Virus record (IMG/VR): IMGVR_UViG_3300045988_122031
Span: 29,757 to 93,756 of that record
DNA length: 64,000 nucleotides
Strand: one strand, 5' to 3'
Source: a virus
The position numbers and the translations under genes are program-made. Positions 7,918 to 25,437 of this stretch are shown here, in pieces (the stretch's first letter is position 1; the number at the start of each line of letters is the position of its first letter). The notes under the pieces were generated by a model, which saw only the letters and a program-made list of their open reading frames with translations, was not told the origin of the DNA and did not search any database.

Positions 7918-9533
7918 CCCACCTCTTCAAGTGAATCACACACTGCTTTCAGCACAAACTTTCTGCCAAAGAATCCACAATCAAGAGTAGTTACAGCACA
8001 AAATTCATCATTCATCATAGAGTGGTCTTCCATATCCTCAAATGATCCATCGTAGTTCCATTTAATGATCCACAATTTATCATTGTTACATGGTTTCAGG
8101 ACAAGATGTTTATAATTGCTCATCTGACCAATGTCATAGTCGTCAATCTCTTCAATATAAACTCTTACAGGTTTAAATCCTTGTCCAGAAATACGATCAA
8201 TTTTCTTAATCATGTCAACCATTTTTCTTGTGATGTCTGAAATATCAAGCATAATATCGACATCAACTGTTGTATCTTCTGGCTTATCTGGAAGAGTTTC
8301 TTCTATATAAGAGGTGAACTCAGCGAAGTTCTTTCTAGGAATTTCAATACCACTGGCAAGTTCATGCCCATTTGCTTCAGCCAACTGACTGTTATTACAC
8401 ATCTGTCGGAAGTCTTTTACACCAACTGCTCGCATAGATCCTGCATATGTATCTTCATTTTTCTTTAGCACAAGAATCGGCTTCTGGTATGTTTCAAGCA
8501 ATTTGTTTCCAATTAACCCAGAAATACCATAATCAGTGTCGATAAAAGTTGTGATCATCTTTTTATCACTCTGAGCTTCACACTGTTCCGCAATCATTGG
8601 CATCAGCTGTGCGACCTCTTCATTTTGGTCTTCTTTGCATTGCTTTAACTGTTTAATATATCCTCGTAACTTTTTATTGTCATCTTCAAGGAAAGCATTT
8701 AGAGCAATTTCATTCTGATCCATTCTGTTTGCAGCATTAACCAACGGTGCAATACTAAAAGCAACTGCTGTGCTGTTGAATTCAAATCCACCAATAATCT
8801 TCTTAATCGCAGGATTTCTAATTTCTTTCAAAGCTTCGGATACAATGTAACGATTCTCCATTACTCTCATATCCATCATATCTGCAATCAGCCCAACGCC
8901 TGCTAGATCGACCAAATCACCTGCATAATCTGTACCATTCTGCTCATCAATATACTTGCAAAACTTCCAAACAACACCTGCGCCAGATAGCTGTGGATTT
9001 TCATATTCTCTCTGAGAAGAAACTAATGTGCAATAGTTGTCATAAGGAACATCTGGATCGATGGCATGGTGATCTAACACAATCACATCAACTCCTGTTT
9101 CTTTCAAATCTTTATACTGAGCCTCATCCTTATCTAAACTATCAACGACAATTAGTAAATCATAACCATAAAACTTAGCGATGTCCTGATGTACTAATCC
9201 ATGCTGTTTGCCTCGGTTAATGTATACATCTACTGGATTTTCTGTCATGTTTTTTAAATATCGTGTCATAATGGCACCAGATGTGATTCCGTCAGTATCT
9301 GTATCAAAATGTACTGCAATACGTTTATCTTTATATACTGCATCTCTCAAAAGTCCGTATGCTTTATCAATATTTTTTAAGTCATCAAGAGGAAGTAAAT
9401 CATCTTCCGTAGGATTTAGAAAATGTTCTGGATCATCAATACCACGCTCCTGCATGATAATTTCAAATACCTCATCTTCAAAAAGTCCTCTGCAATCGTT
9501 CAAAATATTATATTTCTTCTTCGACGTCTTCAT
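7914..9533 (-). CDS. recJ: RecJ-like DHH-family single-stranded DNA exonuclease
   Basis: GIDDPEHFLNP...LLPLDDL...RIAVHFDTDTDGITSGAIM...LLIVVDSLDKD...VIVLDHHA reproduces the DHH motifs I-IV in RecJ order. Confidence 0.75.
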   Translation of the reverse strand: MKTSKKKYNILNDCRGLFEDEVFEIIMQERGIDDPEHFLNPTEDDLLPLDDLKNIDKAYGLLRDAVYKDKRIAVHFDTDTDGITSGAIMTRYLKNMTENPVDVYINRGKQHGLVHQDIAKFYGYDLLIVVDSLDKDEAQYKDLKETGVDVIVLDHHAIDPDVPYDNYCTLVSSQREYENPQLSGAGVVWKFCKYIDEQNGTDYAGDLVDLAGVGLIADMMDMRVMENRYIVSEALKEIRNPAIKKIIGGFEFNSTAVAFSIAPLVNAANRMDQNEIALNAFLEDDNKKLRGYIKQLKQCKEDQNEEVAQLMPMIAEQCEAQSDKKMITTFIDTDYGISGLIGNKLLETYQKPILVLKKNEDTYAGSMRAVGVKDFRQMCNNSQLAEANGHELASGIEIPRKNFAEFTSYIEETLPDKPEDTTVDVDIMLDISDITRKMVDMIKKIDRISGQGFKPVRVYIEEIDDYDIGQMSNYKHLVLKPCNNDKLWIIKWNYDGSFEDMEDHSMMNDEFCAVTTLDCGFFGRKFVLKAVCDSLEEVG

Positions 9534-15304: not shown

Positions 15305-15346
15305 CGTCAAAAAAATAATAAAAGTTGTTTGCGTTATTCAACTTTT
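15305..15346 (-). terminator. Rho-independent terminator after the sigma factor gene
   Basis: On the minus strand AAAAGTTG-(11 nt)-CAACTTTT is followed by AUUAUUUUUUUGA. Confidence 0.55.
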
Positions 15347-15887
15347 ATAATCTGGAAAATGTTGTTGATCGCATTTTTTTAATCTTTTGTTGTATCGCTT
15401 GAAATGATGTACCAAACATTTTTGCAATTTCTTGATATGTATAACCTTTTGATTTTAAATCAACAATCATTCTGTCCTTATTATTTAGTGTGTAACATTT
15501 ATCTTGAAAATTCAACTTGAAAATAATATTTTTTTCAAAATTTTCTTCATCCTTTAAAAAAAATGAATTTTCATTTTTGTCTTCATCCCAATCATCTAAC
15601 ATATGATTATATGAAATAGTATTCATATCACCCTTTCTTCTCTGCCGAAATCTGTATTTGTTATATACCGTTATTTCATTTTGTATACATAAATACGCAT
15701 ATGTCGAAAATGATTTAGATCGTGTTTTATCATAATCAATTGCTGCCTTACACAACCCAATAGCAGCGAATCCATAATAGTCATCAAAATCTTGTCTGCG
15801 GACACCGCATTTTGTCATAGCAGAGTAAATCAAATTATGATTTTGTTCTACCAATTTTCTCTGTTCGTCATTTAATTTCAACGACAT
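15345..15887 (-). CDS. Phage sigma-70 family RNA polymerase sigma factor (regions 2 and 4)
   Basis: MSLKLNDEQRKLVEQNHNLIYSAM...GLCKAAIDYD (region 2) and YTYQEIAKMFGTSFQAIQQKIKKM (region 4 HTH). It is a paralog of 21909..22460. Confidence 0.75.
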   Translation of the reverse strand: MSLKLNDEQRKLVEQNHNLIYSAMTKCGVRRQDFDDYYGFAAIGLCKAAIDYDKTRSKSFSTYAYLCIQNEITVYNKYRFRQRRKGDMNTISYNHMLDDWDEDKNENSFFLKDEENFEKNIIFKLNFQDKCYTLNNKDRMIVDLKSKGYTYQEIAKMFGTSFQAIQQKIKKMRSTTFSRL

Positions 15888-18085: not shown

Positions 18086-18625
18086 CTATTCATTGACTTC
18101 AACTGGCTCTAATGTGTCTTTATTTTTAACAAAATCCAACATGACTTCTTCTTGTATATCTTCATATAATTTGTCATAGTATGTTTTCTTTAATTTAAAA
18201 AATGCTACTTTCAAATCTTCACAATAAAACCTACCTCTTTGCCCATTTTTAATTTGCCGATAAGGATTTTCAGGGTGCTCATACACAACAGAAATTGTTC
18301 CATCTCCATCATATGTAGTCTCCATCGAAATACTACCATTCTTAAGAGCATGATACATAACCTGATTATCTTCAATAAACCCATATGGATGCCACTCATA
18401 ATCATCAGGAATAACAGTTGGTTCAATAACATCAAAATATTTCTCTAATTCATCTCCAGACATCACACCAAGATGCACTCCATTCGCACCAAATCTAAAA
18501 TTGATAACATTTTCATCTGTATCAATCTTAACAATCTCGCATACCTCGCCAAGATTATCGAAGCATCCCATTGGTTTCTTTAATTTAATCTTATGGTCTG
18601 TTGTCAATTCATTAATATTAATCAT
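18086..18625 (-). CDS. Hypothetical protein
   Basis: 179-aa ORF. Confidence 0.5.
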   Translation of the reverse strand: MININELTTDHKIKLKKPMGCFDNLGEVCEIVKIDTDENVINFRFGANGVHLGVMSGDELEKYFDVIEPTVIPDDYEWHPYGFIEDNQVMYHALKNGSISMETTYDGDGTISVVYEHPENPYRQIKNGQRGRFYCEDLKVAFFKLKKTYYDKLYEDIQEEVMLDFVKNKDTLEPVEVNE

Positions 18626-19653
18626 ACTGCCACCTTACCTTTCTTGCTAAAATGTTCATTCCATGCATCGACCGCTTCTTGCTGATCAGCGGTTAGAGGA
18701 TCATTGAATCTTTGCAGTGCTTGTACGATTCGTCCATTTTGTATTTCAATCGTCACTAACGATTTTTCTGGTTCTTTTACTCTTCTCAAGAACATAATAT
18801 GGCATTCGCCATCAATGACTCGATCTATGTAACTTGCCACACAATTATTCTGCTGTACCGCTTCGTCTTTAATGTCTTGAGTGGAGTCTGGATAAAAGAA
18901 TCTCAGTCCTTTATATGTAAATTCGTATTCTTTATTAATACGGCTCTTAAAGACTTCTTCCGAAAATTCTTTTTGTAATCTTTTGTAATTTCTTGTGACA
19001 ATATCCATTGTTGTTTTGAAATGTCTTGGATATCTATCAAATTTATGACTGATTGCGTCCATCATACGGGCATAATCACGCAATTCTCTGAGCAACCAAT
19101 TTATAGCAACAATTGCTTCAAACGTCATTATCTTATCCATATAAACAAATACATCTGCGAGATTATATCCATAATCCTTATTTAAAGACGTTAATATTTC
19201 CATATAATAATCTGTGCTACGATTAGCAAAAAAGAACATTAAGTCGGATTGAGTCACTGTCATATATTGTGTTTGAAGAATTGTTTGAACATAATCTGGA
19301 TATTTTTTGTAAAAATCAACAAACTTGTTATTTAATAAGCGGTTCATCTTCACACCAATACAATAATTTCTTAACCATTTTGGTACTTCATTAATTGAAT
19401 ATCTGAAATCTTCTGCAATTTGTTTGTGCGTAAACCCTATAGCGAAGAACTGCTCACATACTGAATATTGACTTGCATATTCAAACAAAGTTCCCAAATT
19501 ATAATCAATGAAGCCACATGTAGTTCTTCCCATTTCACAATTTCTTCGCCAATTTACATATTTTAGAAACTCTGCATAATGTGGATCGGACACAAACAAT
19601 TTATCCAATTCATCAGCTGAATGTCCAGACAGAATATTATTTAAAGCTTTCAC
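18622..19653 (-). CDS. Hypothetical protein (start uncertain; the in-frame upstream extension has no canonical start codon)
   Basis: 343-aa ORF from a GTG. A protein-like in-frame sequence continues upstream to 19767. Confidence 0.5.
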   Translation of the reverse strand: MKALNNILSGHSADELDKLFVSDPHYAEFLKYVNWRRNCEMGRTTCGFIDYNLGTLFEYASQYSVCEQFFAIGFTHKQIAEDFRYSINEVPKWLRNYCIGVKMNRLLNNKFVDFYKKYPDYVQTILQTQYMTVTQSDLMFFFANRSTDYYMEILTSLNKDYGYNLADVFVYMDKIMTFEAIVAINWLLRELRDYARMMDAISHKFDRYPRHFKTTMDIVTRNYKRLQKEFSEEVFKSRINKEYEFTYKGLRFFYPDSTQDIKDEAVQQNNCVASYIDRVIDGECHIMFLRRVKEPEKSLVTIEIQNGRIVQALQRFNDPLTADQQEAVDAWNEHFSKKGKVAV

Positions 19654-19814: not shown

Positions 19815-20285
19815 TTACACCCATGCTCGAATACTACAATGACCCATCTTAAGATAAAAATCATATATATATGTACATAATTTTTTCTCATCGTCAAATA
19901 TCTTGTCAGACATTTGCACCCACCAAGCATGTAATCTTTTCTTTTCTGTATTCAAAACCAGTACAGGAATATGACGTTCATATGCAATTGCAATCTCCAT
20001 AGATGTACCAATGCTTTTCGGATCATTCGCATTTACTACAACAAGATCACTATTTCTAACAAAATTTGTATCAAATCTCATTACTTCTTTTTCTGTATCA
20101 TGCAACTCTGTTTGAAAATTGTAATAATCAACAGGGTTAATAATATTAACTTCTTTCATATTAACATTAAGAATCCTACGCATAGCAATAATTTGATTGC
20201 AAATTCTTTCTCTCCAAGCATTCTGCTCTTCAAACGATAAATCCTGCATACCGCCTGCTAAATAAATCTGAAATACATTACTCAC
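19815..20285 (-). CDS. Nucleoside 2-deoxyribosyltransferase-like (NDT/Rcl-DNPH1 fold) protein
   Basis: FQIYLAGGM (N-terminal YLAG motif) and GTSMEIAIAYERHIPVLVL (GTxxExGxA catalytic Glu region). Confidence 0.55.
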   Translation of the reverse strand: MSNVFQIYLAGGMQDLSFEEQNAWRERICNQIIAMRRILNVNMKEVNIINPVDYYNFQTELHDTEKEVMRFDTNFVRNSDLVVVNANDPKSIGTSMEIAIAYERHIPVLVLNTEKKRLHAWWVQMSDKIFDDEKKLCTYIYDFYLKMGHCSIRAWV

Positions 20286-20827
20286 TGTTTCATTTCTCCT
20301 TTCACAACATAGGACTCAATCAATCCTTTTCTTAGTCGATCATTCATATCCTGAATCGCTTCCTCAATTGTCTTAAATTTACATGAACAAATATGCTCTT
20401 TGGTCAAATTAACAAATGAATATGTGCCATCTGACTTGTTCCTAAAAATAACAACCACTGATTCTTCTCCATCTGGTTTCTTAACAATAAATCTGAGCGC
20501 ACCTTTTTGTGTTTCCTTTTTATTTTCAAGTAAAATAGTATAATTGATTTTTAACCAGCTACCATATGCCCATACTTGTTTAATTTTTTCTTCAGCATTT
20601 TGAAGTACACAATGTCTATAATCAATACTCTCGATATTATAGACAAGTGATTCAATGGCTTCTTTATCATTTTTTATTGTAATTTGACCATGCGTTCCAT
20701 TTCTTCCATCTGCAATCGCATCAATAAATTCTTCTACAGTATATTCTTTATCAAGCACAACATCATATTTAGTATATTTATCGTTATCAGAACGTGGGCG
20801 TTTTATTAATTTAAACATCCCTATCAC
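20282..20827 (-). CDS. Hypothetical protein
   Basis: 181-aa ORF. Confidence 0.5.
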   Translation of the reverse strand: MIGMFKLIKRPRSDNDKYTKYDVVLDKEYTVEEFIDAIADGRNGTHGQITIKNDKEAIESLVYNIESIDYRHCVLQNAEEKIKQVWAYGSWLKINYTILLENKKETQKGALRFIVKKPDGEESVVVIFRNKSDGTYSFVNLTKEHICSCKFKTIEEAIQDMNDRLRKGLIESYVVKGEMKQ

Positions 20828-21005
20828 CTACTTTCTTATCAAATGTTTCTTGCAAATTTAACCAGAACTGCCCATCATCAGCAAACCCATAATGGTCTGC
20901 CATTGTTTTCGCAAATTCTTTTGTAACACTTTGTAATCCGTCAATCAGCCCTTGCACATAATCAACATCTATGCCAATTTTACTCGCAAGCTGATAAGGA
21001 GTCAT
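20811..21005 (-). CDS. HigA-like HTH (XRE family) domain protein; the conserved N-terminal segment lies upstream of the first ATG
   Basis: YQLASKIGID...VQGLIDG...EFAKTMADHYGFADDGQFWLNLQETFD (HigA FWLNLQ hallmark). The in-frame upstream sequence FHPGECLEEFVESCR matches the HigA HPGE motif but has no start codon. Confidence 0.5.
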   Translation of the reverse strand: MTPYQLASKIGIDVDYVQGLIDGLQSVTKEFAKTMADHYGFADDGQFWLNLQETFDKKVGDRDV

Positions 21006-21081
21006 CCTACAAGATTCAACAAATTCTTCTAAGCATTCGCCAGGATGAAAGCAATTTCGTCTCCAATCTTTACATACATTT

Positions 21082-21912
21082 TTACACCATTCCTCTCACA
21101 ATTCGTTCATTTGTTGTCATCAAGAAGTTATTGATACGATCCCAGTCTGGTTCGTCTGGCAAAGTTGTAGTTTTAAATGCGTTTTCAAAAGCTTGATAAA
21201 AGCAATCAAATAGCTCCCCAAAATCATTAGATGGAACAAATCGTTTGATTATATCATCAGTCGCTCTTCCTTTGATCACCATACTACTACAATAAGCTCC
21301 GTCTCTCAGTAATAATAAACTTTGCCTGAGAAGCTCGAAGTTGTAAGTTTGCATTGTAGATGTTGTCAATAACGCTGTTCCATTGTGTATTACTCTAATT
21401 ACATGCATCATCGCCTTACAAACCTTCTTCTTTACTAAATTAATCTGATCTTCTGTTAAGATAGTTTCGTCATACAATCTGATTGTTTGTTCTTCTAAAG
21501 CCTGTGAATATCCGTTAAATGCATACCAAATTTTCTTTGATAAAAACATATCTCGATTTTTAATCAACTCCATACCAATATCGGATACATATAAATAGCA
21601 TTCTGGACGATTATACAACAACTCTAATGCTGTAGGATTCCCTTTGGCACATAAGTCAATATATTTTTTTAATGCATACATTACAGTATCAGTGTCTTTG
21701 CTGGCGTCTACCGATTTCATACTATTATTCAACAAAATCTCTCTTTTATCACTAAGGAAAACACCACGTAAATCAATGTCAGAATCCTCTGTATTTGTTC
21801 CGTAAGCATAACTTCCACCTAGTGTGAGAAAAGCGATTTTATGAGGATAATCTCGCAAAAAATCATACTCTGTAGACGAGTTTATGTAATCTTTCACTTC
21901 TTCAATTGTCAT
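21082..21912 (-). CDS. Pol-beta superfamily nucleotidyltransferase (PF10127-like predicted NTase)
   Basis: LGGSYAYGTNTEDSDIDLRGVF fits GS-x(10)-DxD. Confidence 0.6.
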   Translation of the reverse strand: MTIEEVKDYINSSTEYDFLRDYPHKIAFLTLGGSYAYGTNTEDSDIDLRGVFLSDKREILLNNSMKSVDASKDTDTVMYALKKYIDLCAKGNPTALELLYNRPECYLYVSDIGMELIKNRDMFLSKKIWYAFNGYSQALEEQTIRLYDETILTEDQINLVKKKVCKAMMHVIRVIHNGTALLTTSTMQTYNFELLRQSLLLLRDGAYCSSMVIKGRATDDIIKRFVPSNDFGELFDCFYQAFENAFKTTTLPDEPDWDRINNFLMTTNERIVRGMV

Positions 21913-22460
21913 GATCTCACCGCCTTTGCCCTATGCATTATTTTTTTAATATTACCAAGTTGCCAACTTACCCATTGAATACTCTTTCCAAATTCTTTAG
22001 CTATGTATTTATGTTCAATATCATCAAGTAACATATATATAATTTTCTTCTGCTTGTCTGACAATTTGTTAAATTCTCCTTGATAATATACTGTTGTTAA
22101 TGCTTGACTCTCTACGGCATCGTTACTCACAAGCAAACTACCAATTGTTAATTCTTCTGCGTCAATTCTTTCGTCAACAGGTGTATCCAATGATTCCGCA
22201 TTTCTGTTCATTTTCTCTGTTGGGCTATGCCATTTTATATAATATTTATTAATTTCTGACTGTAATACCCATCTAAAATACGTCCCAAAATTACCTTTAG
22301 ACTCATCCCATTTTAATGCTGCTTTGCAAATTGCCATACGACCAAGATCCATATATGTATCAAAATCTTTAAATTTTGTAAAATACTTCTCATGCAAATG
22401 CCAAATCAAAGAATAATTATCTTCAATCAGCTTTCGCTGTTCATCATTTAGTTTCTTCAC
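21909..22460 (-). CDS. Second phage sigma-70 family sigma factor
   Basis: MKKLNDEQRKLIEDNYSLIWH... (region 2) and YIAKEFGKSIQWVSWQLGNIKKIM (region 4). Its N-terminus is near-identical in pattern to 15345..15887. Confidence 0.7.
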   Translation of the reverse strand: MKKLNDEQRKLIEDNYSLIWHLHEKYFTKFKDFDTYMDLGRMAICKAALKWDESKGNFGTYFRWVLQSEINKYYIKWHSPTEKMNRNAESLDTPVDERIDAEELTIGSLLVSNDAVESQALTTVYYQGEFNKLSDKQKKIIYMLLDDIEHKYIAKEFGKSIQWVSWQLGNIKKIMHRAKAVRS

Positions 22461-23247
22461 ATTTCTTAGCCTCCTGTTCTTTAATAAATTGCTCTACTTC
22501 ATCTGTATAATCTAACCCAAAATAATACTCTGCATGTCTTCCAGGATGAGGCACAATCATATCTATAGCATTTGGGACTTCTTTGTTTATTTCTTTATAA
22601 ATATCACCACTGCATTTTAATGTACCCATTACTAAATCATGTATAGAATATTTATTTTTAATACATGGAATTGGAGGGTCGTTAAACAAGTGGCTAATAA
22701 AAGGATGTATGCTTCGTTCATTTCTTGCTTTTATATACGCTTTGTCCATCATATCTTTCATTATATGTATAGCCTTGCAAACATCTTCACTAGCCAATTC
22801 ATAAACTAATGCTTTAGTAGATTCATAATATACATCATCTGTATATGTACTATTAGAATATAATTTATAAACTTCATTGCCATTTGATTTATCAATACAT
22901 ATGTTATCAATAGAAATTTTCTCACCGTTTTTTAATACAATTTCATCACAACACAATATTGCAGGAGATGTAATATGCATTGTTTCGATTGGCACATAAT
23001 CTGTATATTCATACAAATAAGACTGCATAAGTATTTTTAAATTATAATCAAAACGATAATACATTTCATCTAACTCGTCACAATTTTTGTATTCTAAAGA
23101 CTCAATTTCAGCAAACTCATCTCCCAGACAAATACCACGCACTACTTCGAACTTTCTTCTTCTATAAATTTCCACATCGGCTTCCCAATCTGGATCTCTG
23201 TTTTTACTAAAAGCAAGTTCAATTTCTCTTGTATTTTTCCTTGACAT
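22444..23247 (-). CDS. Hypothetical protein
   Basis: 267-aa ORF between the sigma factor and DHH genes. Confidence 0.5.
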   Translation of the reverse strand: MSRKNTREIELAFSKNRDPDWEADVEIYRRRKFEVVRGICLGDEFAEIESLEYKNCDELDEMYYRFDYNLKILMQSYLYEYTDYVPIETMHITSPAILCCDEIVLKNGEKISIDNICIDKSNGNEVYKLYSNSTYTDDVYYESTKALVYELASEDVCKAIHIMKDMMDKAYIKARNERSIHPFISHLFNDPPIPCIKNKYSIHDLVMGTLKCSGDIYKEINKEVPNAIDMIVPHPGRHAEYYFGLDYTDEVEQFIKEQEAKKCEETK

Positions 23248-23250
23248 ACA

Positions 23251-24204
23251 TCACACTCCTAATACATATTTATCACATCTGAACCCAGCTGCATTTGGAT
23301 GACCGCCACCACCATATTTCACAGCAAGCTCATACACATTTACTTTATCTTGTTCTGCGGATCGTAGCTGATATTCCCACATACTTCCATTGAATGAAAA
23401 ACCGATAAACATATCGTATTTAGAAGCATCAATAGATTCGAAGAAATCAGAATTGATTAACGCTCTGTTGATTGCATAGACTTTATGTCCCTCAAATATG
23501 GTTTCAAAACCATATGCTCTAAGATATTGTTCTGCATTTGCTGCTAAATACTCAATAATTGATAAGCCATCTGCTATCATATCACCAATAATTTTTGCTG
23601 CTTCATAAATTCCTTGATCTTTATTTAACGTGTTTAGCAATGGACTTAACGCATCAAAATCATACGATTCAAATGCATAGTGAAATGCTTTTACGAATTG
23701 TTTTGACGTTTCACCAAAATAAAATGTATCCCACATGGCTGTATATTCTGCCAGTTTTGGATAATCTGCTTTATATTTATATATATTGAGTAATCTTTTT
23801 ACATTTTTCTCATCCGTCCTCTCAATTTGCTCCCAATTTTCATCACACATATATTTAAAATATAACCATGTCAAATTCGCTCCTGAAATACCCGCTCCAG
23901 TAATTCTGATTCCTTTTACATCACACTTGAAATCTTTATACGCTTCAATCGTAGACTGATGATGGTCGATCCAAAATACATTCTTTGTAATACTGAGCAA
24001 CTGCCACATCTCTTCTGGCTCAATACTGTAGTCTACAATAAACACAAATTCATCCTGCTCAATGTCATGAAACGGGAATTTCATACCGTAATTAATTTTT
24101 CGAAAGTCCTCTGGTTCAAATGCCAAGCCTCGCTGTTCGCAAGCTTTTCTGACGTAGAATCCAGACACGATTCCGTCTTGATCCACATGATAAAAACATT
24201 TCAT
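23251..24204 (-). CDS. DHH-DHHA1 family phosphoesterase (NrnA-like nanoRNase/pAp phosphatase fold)
   Basis: FYHVDQDGIVSG (motif I/II), FWIDHHQS (DHH) and a C-terminal GGGGHPNAAGF (DHHA1 GGGH motif). Confidence 0.7.
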   Translation of the reverse strand: MKCFYHVDQDGIVSGFYVRKACEQRGLAFEPEDFRKINYGMKFPFHDIEQDEFVFIVDYSIEPEEMWQLLSITKNVFWIDHHQSTIEAYKDFKCDVKGIRITGAGISGANLTWLYFKYMCDENWEQIERTDEKNVKRLLNIYKYKADYPKLAEYTAMWDTFYFGETSKQFVKAFHYAFESYDFDALSPLLNTLNKDQGIYEAAKIIGDMIADGLSIIEYLAANAEQYLRAYGFETIFEGHKVYAINRALINSDFFESIDASKYDMFIGFSFNGSMWEYQLRSAEQDKVNVYELAVKYGGGGHPNAAGFRCDKYVLGV

Positions 24205-24254
24205 TCTTTAGTCCTCCTTCTCATTTCTCTGTTTATATACAAACATCTACTAAT

Positions 24255-24884
24255 CTATCTTTTTGAAAAGATATAATCCAATTGATTTTTAATATCATTC
24301 AAAGACAAAATTTCTTTCTTATATCGTTTAAATTGAATGTCATGCAGTATCTTTTCATATTCTCTCTCTTTCTTATAGTGATCCAAGATCAACTCTTTAA
24401 GACGAATAGAATATTTCATATGATATCTGTTTTGAAAAATCATTCCCCTCAAAATATTTAGATCAATATGTGGATTTTCTTCTAATACAATATCTAATGT
24501 ATTGCTTTCCTTTGCCTTTATATAAAGCTCATCATACCATACGTTTCTTTTTATGTCGTACACTAAAGAATCTAAGTTGAAAAATACAGTAAAAGGTAAA
24601 TTCTTTAGATAATCTTCTTCAGAACAGTTAATGATATTCTCTCTATATGCCCATGTTTGCTCTATTCTCCATACATCAACAACAATGTCATGGTAGGTAA
24701 TTTTATATCCATCAAAAAAGTTCTTTCTGGCATGATATTTTTTACAAACTGCATCAAACTTATCTGTTTCTTTTGTATCAATCACAACGTCAATATCTTT
24801 TGCATCTTTAATGTTGCCTGTTTCTAAAAATTCTCTTGGGGCTCCGCCTATCAAGTAAAGATCCCCTGTATTATACAGTTCCAT
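24255..24884 (-). CDS. Minimal nucleotidyltransferase with a poly(A)-polymerase/CCA-adding-enzyme head domain
   Basis: DLYLIGGAPREFLETGNIKDAKDIDVVID matches the class II NTase GGxVRD...DxD head-domain signature. At 209 aa it lacks the body and tail domains. Confidence 0.55.
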   Translation of the reverse strand: MELYNTGDLYLIGGAPREFLETGNIKDAKDIDVVIDTKETDKFDAVCKKYHARKNFFDGYKITYHDIVVDVWRIEQTWAYRENIINCSEEDYLKNLPFTVFFNLDSLVYDIKRNVWYDELYIKAKESNTLDIVLEENPHIDLNILRGMIFQNRYHMKYSIRLKELILDHYKKEREYEKILHDIQFKRYKKEILSLNDIKNQLDYIFSKR

Positions 24885-24958
24885 AAATAATTGTTGTGCT
24901 GATTTATAATGATTTAGACAGTTTTCAATACTGTTGTTTTCATAGCCCTTCTTAGTTT

Positions 24959-25270
24959 TTATTCTTTTTCCTCCTTTACAAGCTTAACTTTATAACCAAG
25001 TTCCTTTTCAATTTCTTCAATCGTCATTTCTTTTGGCGGAGAATAACTCATATTCAAACTATCAATATCAGTTTCCATATTCCAAACACTTCTGTAAATC
25101 AATCTTCCTACCAAAATACAAATTGCTTTCTTAACTTCTTGTGCTGTCGGTGGATAATGATCTAATGATGCAATAATATGTTTGTAGTTTTCTTCATTCA
25201 ATAAAACACGCTTAGAGTCAAGCGATGAATCCTCTTCTTCTCGTGATTCAATATATAAAAAGTGGTTCAT
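24959..25270 (-). CDS. Hypothetical protein
   Basis: 103-aa ORF. Confidence 0.5.
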   Translation of the reverse strand: MNHFLYIESREEEDSSLDSKRVLLNEENYKHIIASLDHYPPTAQEVKKAICILVGRLIYRSVWNMETDIDSLNMSYSPPKEMTIEEIEKELGYKVKLVKEEKE

Positions 25271-25437
25271 GTTATCTCTCCTTTCTCAATTTCTTCTTTA
25301 ATAATTCTATATGCAAGAGCCTCATCAGACTCTTTGTCATTAATTCCATTTCTTTCTAATAGCCTGTCCAATTCGTCTGGGCTCAACTGATCAAAGAATC
25401 GTTTTATTTCTTGTTTACGTTCTTGTCTTGTTTTCAT
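25267..25437 (-). CDS. Small hypothetical protein (56 aa), not in the ORF track
   Basis: Manual translation MKTRQERKQEIKRFFDQLSPDELDRLLERNGINDKESDEALAYRIIKEEIEKGEIT. It has an ATGA stop/start overlap with the downstream gene. Confidence 0.4.
   Translation of the reverse strand: MKTRQERKQEIKRFFDQLSPDELDRLLERNGINDKESDEALAYRIIKEEIEKGEIT

Follow-up and report, generated by a model that had tools for sequence, protein, structure and literature searches.

A Phage DHH-DHHA1 Phosphoesterase Near RlaP: Possible Remnant of a Conserved tRNA-End Cluster

Introduction

Whether neighboring phage genes for RNA-end and nucleotide enzymes form one functional system is the question raised by a 3.8-kb region (positions 21082–24884) of a 64,000-nucleotide stretch of viral DNA, here called the window, which spans positions 29,757 to 93,756 of IMG/VR record IMGVR_UViG_3300045988_122031. 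A preliminary description had recognized in it a small nucleotidyltransferase with a CCA/poly(A)-polymerase head (here mini-NTase), an NrnA-like DHH-DHHA1 phosphoesterase (DHH), an unknown protein of 267 amino acids (aa), a sigma factor and a PF10127-type nucleotidyltransferase (RlaP), followed by a HigA-like helix-turn-helix (HTH) gene. Two functions had been put forward for this set: a tRNA 3'-end repair module, or a module that makes or degrades nucleotide second messengers. All six open reading frames (ORFs) are present, on the minus strand, which carries nearly all long ORFs of this AT-rich window (31–37% GC).

The five genes are a mosaic remnant and not a fixed system. With a probability of about one half, and by analogy with diverged phages, the region may be a rearranged and partly eroded derivative of a conserved cluster that heals or matures tRNA ends, with the composition RlaP-(X)-CCA-DHH(-Thg1), in which CCA stands for a CCA-adding enzyme and X for a further conserved protein. 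This cluster appears to be ancestral in phages of roughly 130–220 kb from gut Clostridia, and its tRNA-end role is one that we infer.

The close relatives considered below are the 53 IMG/VR loci retrieved with the DHH protein, whose longest contigs measure about 150–169 kb. Each relative was viewed over ~20 kb around the gene, and the window covers 64 kb of a genome of roughly 160 kb. Counts made from the CCA side refer to the best 80 of at least 563 IMG/VR CCA loci. A DNA search of cultured phages gave no match to the 3.8 kb, and a PADLOC scan found nothing relevant among the proteins of the region.

The RlaP-(X)-CCA-DHH Cluster

In diverged loci, in which the DHH protein is 38–44% identical to that of the window, the gene order is RlaP, often X, a full-length CCA-adding enzyme and DHH. 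The full-length phage CCA enzyme comprises PolyA_pol, RNA-binding, HD and tRNA_NucTran2_2 domains. The arrangement is contiguous in L054/L055, L074, L076, L150, L151, L154, L155, and L159; in L074 it is extended by Thg1 directly after DHH, and in L143, L145, and L168 a Thg1 gene is found up to about 5 kb upstream of DHH. In L075 a 3-kb spacer separates CCA from DHH, and in L144 RlaP is directly upstream of DHH, the CCA-like match further upstream being weak (28% identity). The tRNA genes that accompany the cluster in L054/L055, L076, L143, and L145 are not a general feature, and many cluster loci have no tRNA gene within 7–8 kb.

Seen from the CCA gene, RlaP is located upstream in 58 of the best 80 loci. 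In 42 of these 80, an ORF with the DHH and GGGH motifs starts within about 150 nt downstream of the CCA gene, with gaps down to 14 nt. Most of these CCA-adjacent DHH proteins belong to a second lineage, only about 23% identical to that of the window. Such persistent adjacency would scarcely be expected in the absence of selection for co-expression, and the conserved order lends partial support to the idea of tRNA 3'-end repair; the five-gene set of the window, with its sporadic and 5'-disrupted mini-NTase, does not share in that support. None of the best 80 loci comes from contigs of the window clade. The window itself has the order DHH-orphan-sigma-RlaP; it is thus no member of the contiguous RlaP-CCA-DHH group and would be a derivative of it.

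Protein X, a conserved protein of 313–365 aa encoded between RlaP and CCA, was detected in 23 of the best 80 CCA loci (for example L055 7625–8629, L074 4701–5642, and L075 1352–2449). It belongs to no Pfam or PHROG family; a CxxC is found near its N-terminus, and its stretch FISIDMKKANFS is invariant. In L054, a 204-kb contig, the CCA gene is frameshifted in a T-run near its 5' end (8538–8740) and X is reduced to a 27-codon stub; in the near-identical L055 both genes are intact. IS605/TnpB-type genes are found nearby in both loci, as is a DUF2828/Ro60-vWA protein 3 kb downstream.

The cluster also occurs in Lachnospiraceae prophages. Bacterial genome contigs that carry it are those of Lachnospiraceae bacterium A4, Eubacterium plexicaudatum ASF492, an Eubacteriales assembly and a Christensenella metagenome-assembled genome. 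Such genome contigs (L162, L165, L176, L161), above all those of the first (a 791-kb scaffold) and the second, give a clue to the host, as does a copy of the orphan described below: Lachnospiraceae and other Clostridia are the probable hosts of the phage family.

The DHH-DHHA1 Phosphoesterase

The stand-alone DHH-DHHA1 phosphoesterase (23251..24204, minus strand; 317 aa) is the conserved anchor of the neighborhood and is found in all 53 close relatives at 79–100% identity. Its identity as a DHH-DHHA1 protein, as first described, is upheld by phrog_4771 ("DHH phosphoesterase", E 7e-36) and by motifs that are invariant in 23 homologues, namely H6/D8/D10, D58, D80-H81-H82, D159, and GGGH at 299–302 (G298-H302). 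The scores against curated models remain below cut-off: 21.2 vs. 25.9 for Pfam DHHA1, 20.6 vs. 28.1 for Pfam DHH, and 16.1 bits vs. 350 for the NCBIfam NrnA model (NF053633). In profile matches, solved NrnA-type chains of the PDB align with it around GGGH only, and two of its homologues carry the JGI label COG2404/NrnB.

NrnB-type DHH proteins degrade RNA from 3' to 5', and those of clade A need a C-terminal extension of >100 aa for long RNA substrates, the lack of an extension correlating with a preference for very short over long RNAs (PMC12709177). The window protein ends 15 residues past GGGH, and the clade A extension is absent. Its best matches in cultured phages (26–32% identity) are proteins of Brevundimonas and Ralstonia jumbo phages that are annotated as exonuclease or phosphoesterase, and its cellular homologues in Methanobacterium and alphaproteobacteria (27–34% identity) have no RlaP- or CCA-type neighbors.

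A Mosaic Gene Set Around DHH

In the window, DHH, the orphan, the sigma factor and RlaP follow one another closely: DHH and the orphan are 3 nt apart, the orphan and sigma genes share 17 nt, and the RlaP start runs into the sigma stop codon with an overlap of 4 nt. No terminator-like site occurs within this block, and a promoter scan found sites no commoner than in shuffled sequence. The mini-NTase gene ends 50 nt before DHH, and 76 nt separate RlaP from the start of the HTH ORF. DHH and RlaP lie at most 2.3 kb apart in nearly all 53 close relatives, a few loci being without an RlaP match.

The five-gene neighborhood is conserved to a lesser degree than this pair. Its order recurs in the sister lineage L077 (NTase-DHH-x-sigma-RlaP, with identities of 80% for DHH, 76% for the mini-NTase and 80% for RlaP), but among the close relatives only 4 of 53 have the mini-NTase beside DHH. 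The gene occupies a hypervariable interval that extends from a conserved 56-aa gene (window 25267–25437) to DHH and always opens with a gene of ~101–118 aa. After this opener come the mini-NTase, two Tad2-like genes, Tad2-like genes with a 137-aa Nuc_deoxyri_tr2-like gene, a gene of 120–137 aa (Nuc_deoxyri_tr2-like where tested), or nothing. In the relatives, the slot equivalent to window 24205–24958 (L003 9397–10001; L006 8965–9994; L016 9603–10001) is filled by PF11195 Tad2-like genes (one or two; E 1e-8 to 1e-11) and/or a Nuc_deoxyri_tr2-like gene of 132–137 aa. Tad2 is a sponge that counters the Thoeris defense, and the presence of Tad2-like genes in the same slot makes the mini-NTase a reasonable counter-defense candidate.

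The Mini-NTase

The mini-NTase ("NTaseA"; 24255..24884, minus strand; 209 aa) has no match in Pfam (even at E 0.1), PHROG, NCBIfam or PADLOC and, whether by sequence or by profile, no meaningful one in the PDB, and a protein search of cultured phages found nothing. Its AlphaFold (AF2) model, built on 18 homologues (pLDDT 91), displays the head and neck fold of class II tRNA nucleotidyltransferases. The top 46 Foldseek matches in the PDB (E ≤ 1e-3, best 1e-7) are all class II CCA-, A- or CC-adding enzymes or poly(A) polymerases, with TM(query) scores of 0.5–0.65 and ~215 residues aligned of targets of 342–517 residues. The label "CCA/poly(A)-polymerase-head" is therefore right at the level of the fold. 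Invariant or nearly so are G13-G14, R17, D30-x-D32, and D70 (the third carboxylate), and an ExTxxYR-like strand is lined up in an hhalign alignment of low confidence (probability 22%).

The label does not extend to a canonical CCA enzyme. The RRD (motif B) and EDxxR (motif D) motifs, which in CCA enzymes serve as a protein template in the choice of CTP and ATP, are not conserved, as judged by inspection and by the same low-confidence alignment, in which EDALR stands opposite HIDLN and RRD opposite non-basic residues. The body and tail domains, which hold the tRNA, and the HD domain are absent from the 209-aa protein, and profile-profile comparison with the phage CCA enzymes aligned motif A alone (probability 33%). 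To regard the mini-NTase as a substitute for CCA is speculation.

The 5' end of the gene is disrupted (24885..24943, minus strand), as seen by comparison with the sister lineage L077, in which it is intact (MKTTVLKYLNYHKLAQQLFMELYD). Homologues have about 20 N-terminal residues more than the window ORF, and the conserved ones (CLNHYKSAQQLF) are still encoded in frame upstream of the 24884 ATG, without a start codon. The ancestral ATG (24943–24941), preceded by the Shine-Dalgarno-like AAGAAGGG, now yields, because of a frameshift, a nine-codon ORF (MKTTVLKTV-stop). In an independent lineage (L078/P0012, 53 contigs), this N-terminal stretch is interrupted by a nonsense codon. Such 5' changes, here and in the HTH gene, may reflect decay, internal initiation or recoding.

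A profile search retrieved 1550 clusters (50% identity) at E ≤ 1e-3 and 162 at E ≤ 1e-30. Among the matches listed, the members are mostly 225–260 aa long, and remote ones reach the threshold of PF01743 (P0033; the L063 homologue, 23.8 bits vs. 23). Since the family is large and consists of consistently roughly 230-aa stand-alone proteins, the notion of a decayed canonical CCA gene was rejected. A mobile NTase-DHH cassette was rejected as well: outside the window clade neither DHH nor RlaP is encoded within 6 kb of the homologues, and the 317-aa gene that follows the L078/L079 homologue is not a DHH.

In four diverged loci, a gene of ~490–510 aa with HD and HD_assoc domains (dGTPase-like) stands immediately upstream of the mini-NTase homologue (L062 4450–5916; L065 4448–5896; L066 4401–5933; L068 4413–5933), and is a second phosphohydrolase paired with the family. 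A PARP-like gene with WGR, PARP regulatory and PARP catalytic domains follows the homologue just downstream in L063 (6908–8431) and L067 (7430–8929), phage contigs of 130–204 kb in which an NAD-dependent DNA ligase and a calcineurin-like phosphoesterase are also encoded nearby. Other homologues occur in plasmid-like gene contexts.

RlaP, the Sigma Factor, the Orphan, and the HTH Gene

RlaP (21082..21912, minus strand; 276 aa) is a member of the PF10127 family of Pol-beta nucleotidyltransferases (E 7e-22; 78.7 bits vs. a gathering score of 23; profile positions 14–248 of 249) and matches phrog_388 (E 5e-43). The GS-x10-DxD motif noted at the outset corresponds to G33-S34, ten residues, and D45-x-D47. 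Nearly all 53 close relatives encode RlaP, in two alleles that are about 53% and 87–100% identical to the window protein.

The sigma-70/ECF-type (extracytoplasmic function) factor, with regions 2 and 4 (21909..22460, minus strand; 183 aa), was likewise correctly identified: it exceeds the cut-off of TIGR02937 (45.6 vs. 42.9 bits) and matches phrog_351 (E 7e-18), the Sigma70_r2 and r4 matches being weak. Three alleles are present among the close relatives. In another phage subclade (L129–L140, L073, L152) a sigma gene also follows DHH directly, its product being 38–46% identical to the window's, which argues for a syntenic neighbor and not a partner.

The orphan (22444..23247, minus strand; 267 aa) is restricted to the clade and has neither a family nor a fold match. 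Its alleles among the close relatives are about 100, 49, or 41% identical, or the gene is absent, and it probably lies outside the shared function. The last 14 residues (FIKEQEAKKCEETK, window 22444–22490) are near-invariant across alleles that are otherwise 40–50% identical; the constraint probably comes from the sigma gene, whose start and ribosome-binding region overlap this end, and not from the protein. An 81%-identical copy (P0159) is deposited under Anaerostipes sp. Marseille-Q3525.

The HTH gene (20811..21079, minus strand) originally encoded 89 aa, of which a 64-aa ORF (21005–20811) is a remnant. Its ATG (21079–21077) is out of frame through a 1-nt deletion in a T-run, common to the window and the ENA contig L072. 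The matches to HTH_31, HTH_3, TIGR02607, and phrog_1381 are of Xre/HigA-like type and all weak or below cut-off; for HigA itself (TIGR02607), 26.6 bits compare with a cut-off of 47.7. In place of a recognizable HigB-type toxin gene, the flanks hold RlaP and a 181-aa protein without any family above cut-off. No evidence places the sigma factor, the orphan or the HTH protein in a common function.

Neighboring Genes

A tRNA-like gene is located 5.4 kb upstream of the mini-NTase gene (30238–30376, minus strand). It scores 42.5 bits against the Rfam tRNA model (gathering score 29) and was missed by ARAGORN. It is canonical in acceptor stem, D arm, T arm and discriminator, and encodes no CCA. The anticodon stem (GGCAAU/AUUGCC) encloses an AU-rich insert of roughly 70 nt in place of a loop; this size does not fit a group I intron. 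The insert holds UUUUUCUACCUCC, antisense to the GGAGG-ATG of a small plus-strand ORF. With its insert, the tRNA-like gene is conserved in >80 relative loci (23 variants of 137–145 nt), including the sister clade.

Further upstream, the minus strand carries a nicotinamide adenine dinucleotide (NAD)-salvage-type set consisting of a nicotinamidase/isochorismatase (36222–36818), NAMPT (33905–35374), and NAD synthase (33117–33887), and, nearer to the tRNA-like gene, a Band_7/flotillin protein (31256–32716). The same kind of NAD-salvage set is found directly after DHH in L076, and some relatives add Macro or NADAR genes. On the other side of the region the minus strand encodes a nucleoside 2-deoxyribosyltransferase-like protein (19815–20285), a PcfJ-like protein (18622–19653), and a second sigma factor (15345–15887); among the relatives, alleles of the deoxyribosyltransferase-like gene and of others nearby are swapped.

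Proposed Mechanism and Alternatives

In a preprint, Pseudomonas RlaP adds one or two nucleoside monophosphates to RNA 3'-OH ends, with a preference for damaged RNA, and over-damaged tRNA depends on it to become aminoacylated again (PMC12776372). If the cluster acts on tRNA ends, DHH would trim or dephosphorylate the damaged or extended single-stranded 3' tail, RlaP would add one or two nucleotides back to the 3'-OH, and the class II nucleotidyltransferase would then rebuild the CCA end; Thg1, where present, would repair the 5' end. In the window clade the canonical CCA gene and X would have gone missing from the locus, DHH and RlaP being kept in a tight co-directional block, separated by the clade-specific orphan and by the sigma factor as the next syntenic gene. 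The mini-NTase would be an occasional cargo gene of the hypervariable slot, in the position that CCA holds in relatives, directly upstream of DHH.

Several observations weigh against this derivation from a tRNA-end cluster. A tBLASTn search of the 64 kb found no canonical CCA enzyme, X, Thg1, or TROVE in the window, nor does it have ARAGORN-detectable tRNAs. Although RlaP owes its name to a genomic association with an RNA ligase, the loci examined yielded no such ligase, and their gene tables (~20 kb per gene) contain no RtcB or RNA-ligase Pfam families. Of the best 80 CCA loci, 38 have no DHH within 3 kb, and many DHH loci (L129–L140, L142, L146–L149, and others) are without RlaP or CCA. The cluster loci have YorF, AAA_24, Band_7, and PcfJ in common and all belong to a single broad phage family, so that the synteny represents long-retained common descent and not independent assembly. 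Most relatives lack the mini-NTase, and the window's copy no longer has its start; the protein is hence not essential to the function of DHH and RlaP. By analogy with NrnB, the extension-less DHH may favor very short RNAs over long substrates. Finally, the roles given to all proteins here are predictions from sequence, fold and synteny.

The short-RNA preference would also fit another explanation, to which we attach clearly lower odds: the region has no joint function, its early or accessory genes are adjacent by descent, and DHH serves as a nanoRNase in the recycling of host RNA fragments to nucleotides (for the preference, see PMC12709177). The orphan, sigma and RlaP alleles are indeed swapped among relatives, the mini-NTase slot has at least five alternative contents, and the homologues of the mini-NTase are found elsewhere beside dGTPase-like HD, PARP-like, NAD-dependent ligase and plasmid-like genes; the surroundings of the region also include genes of nucleotide metabolism (the deoxyribosyltransferase-like gene and NAD salvage). 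Such an explanation is at odds with the retention of CCA-then-DHH and of RlaP upstream across DHH lineages as diverged as those described above, and with the cellular fusions of DHH-DHHA1 to tRNA nucleotidyltransferases (PMC12709177). A rather doubtful extension of the tRNA-end reading would make RlaP-X-CCA-DHH(-Thg1) an undescribed, dedicated healing system, with DHH as its end-cleaning nuclease or phosphatase and X as a new component, and the roughly 230-aa mini-NTases a new mobile class of counter-defense proteins; beside phosphohydrolases, these may then act on RNA 3' ends or on nucleotide signals with a specificity unlike that of CCA.

The second-messenger idea survives in altered form, on circumstantial grounds that are weaker than those for tRNA repair. 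Here DHH would degrade host immune nucleotide signals (cyclic oligoadenylates, cyclic di- or trinucleotides) or their linear products, and the slot would collect anti-signaling genes, possibly including the mini-NTase, with RlaP unrelated; we consider this proposal unlikely. It draws on the Tad2-like or Nuc_deoxyri_tr2-like genes directly upstream of DHH in relatives, on NAD-salvage genes, of a type associated with counter-defense, 9–12 kb upstream in the window and directly after DHH in L076, and on the prediction that DHH enzymes of jumbo phages counter cyclic-nucleotide signals (Iyer et al., 2021; PMC7824862). However, beyond the clade the recurrent partners of DHH are tRNA-end enzymes (CCA, RlaP, Thg1) and not sponges or ring nucleases, neither DHH nor the mini-NTase matches a PADLOC or anti-defense family, and the NrnB proteins tested left c-di-AMP uncleaved (PMC12709177). 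Literature searches found no published phage DHH enzyme with an anti-signaling role. A housekeeping function in maturation is more improbable still: the cluster would process phage tRNA or tRNA-like transcripts that lack an encoded CCA, DHH trimming the 3' trailers and the CCA enzyme adding CCA. Several relatives do have tRNA genes adjoining the cluster, and the conserved tRNA-like gene of the window encodes no CCA; but many cluster loci have no tRNA gene close by, hosts already supply CCA-adding and 3'-trimming enzymes, and RlaP and Thg1 are repair-type and not standard maturation enzymes (PMC12776372, PMC7824862).

Comparison With Known Systems

RNA repair in phages is known mainly from T4 and from genome catalogs, and hosts often stop phages through tRNA damage. 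If DHH is a third partner of RlaP and CCA, it would supply the end-cleaning step that RlaP biochemistry leaves open, and the cluster would amount to a repair pathway open to testing, in gut phages that are abundant and uncultivated. The interest of the locus lies in this DHH-RlaP-CCA link, in protein X, in the interrupted tRNA-like gene and in the large mini-NTase family, which is not covered by any curated family and is easy to express. As to novelty, an existing catalog of phage RNA-repair genes includes RlaP, the CCA-adding enzyme, Thg1, and TROVE (PMC7824862), which corrects the preliminary view that no described system is involved. A published link of DHH to RlaP-CCA repair clusters was not found in literature searches, and to that extent the view holds.

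The RNA-repair sets cataloged for jumbo phages (Iyer et al., 2021; PMC7824862), which also comprise RNA ligases and have T4 Pnkp/Rnl as prototype and NrdC.11 as the T4 RlaP, share with the present loci the logic of host conflict. The window has RlaP, and its relatives have RlaP with CCA and sometimes Thg1 or DUF2828/Ro60-vWA. By contrast, neither RNA ligase nor polynucleotide kinase was seen in the loci examined here, in which DHH-DHHA1 and the 313–365-aa X are recurrent; the window version is without CCA and X. The mini-NTase resembles the class II tRNA nucleotidyltransferases (PF01743) in its head and neck, its GG...R...DxD, third carboxylate and ExTxxYR-like strand, but is about half their size or less, is devoid of body, tail and HD domains, and does not conserve RRD and EDxxR.

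The window DHH has the two-domain architecture of NrnA and NrnB (COG2404 being NrnB), with DHH motifs I–IV and GGGH. It differs in being very divergent and in the absence of the NrnB-A extension, and a coupling to CCA and RlaP is not described for NrnA or NrnB. The closest parallel to that coupling is found in cells, where DHH-DHHA1 is fused to tRNA nucleotidyltransferases (PMC12709177): the same two activities are encoded in the phages by adjacent, separate genes.

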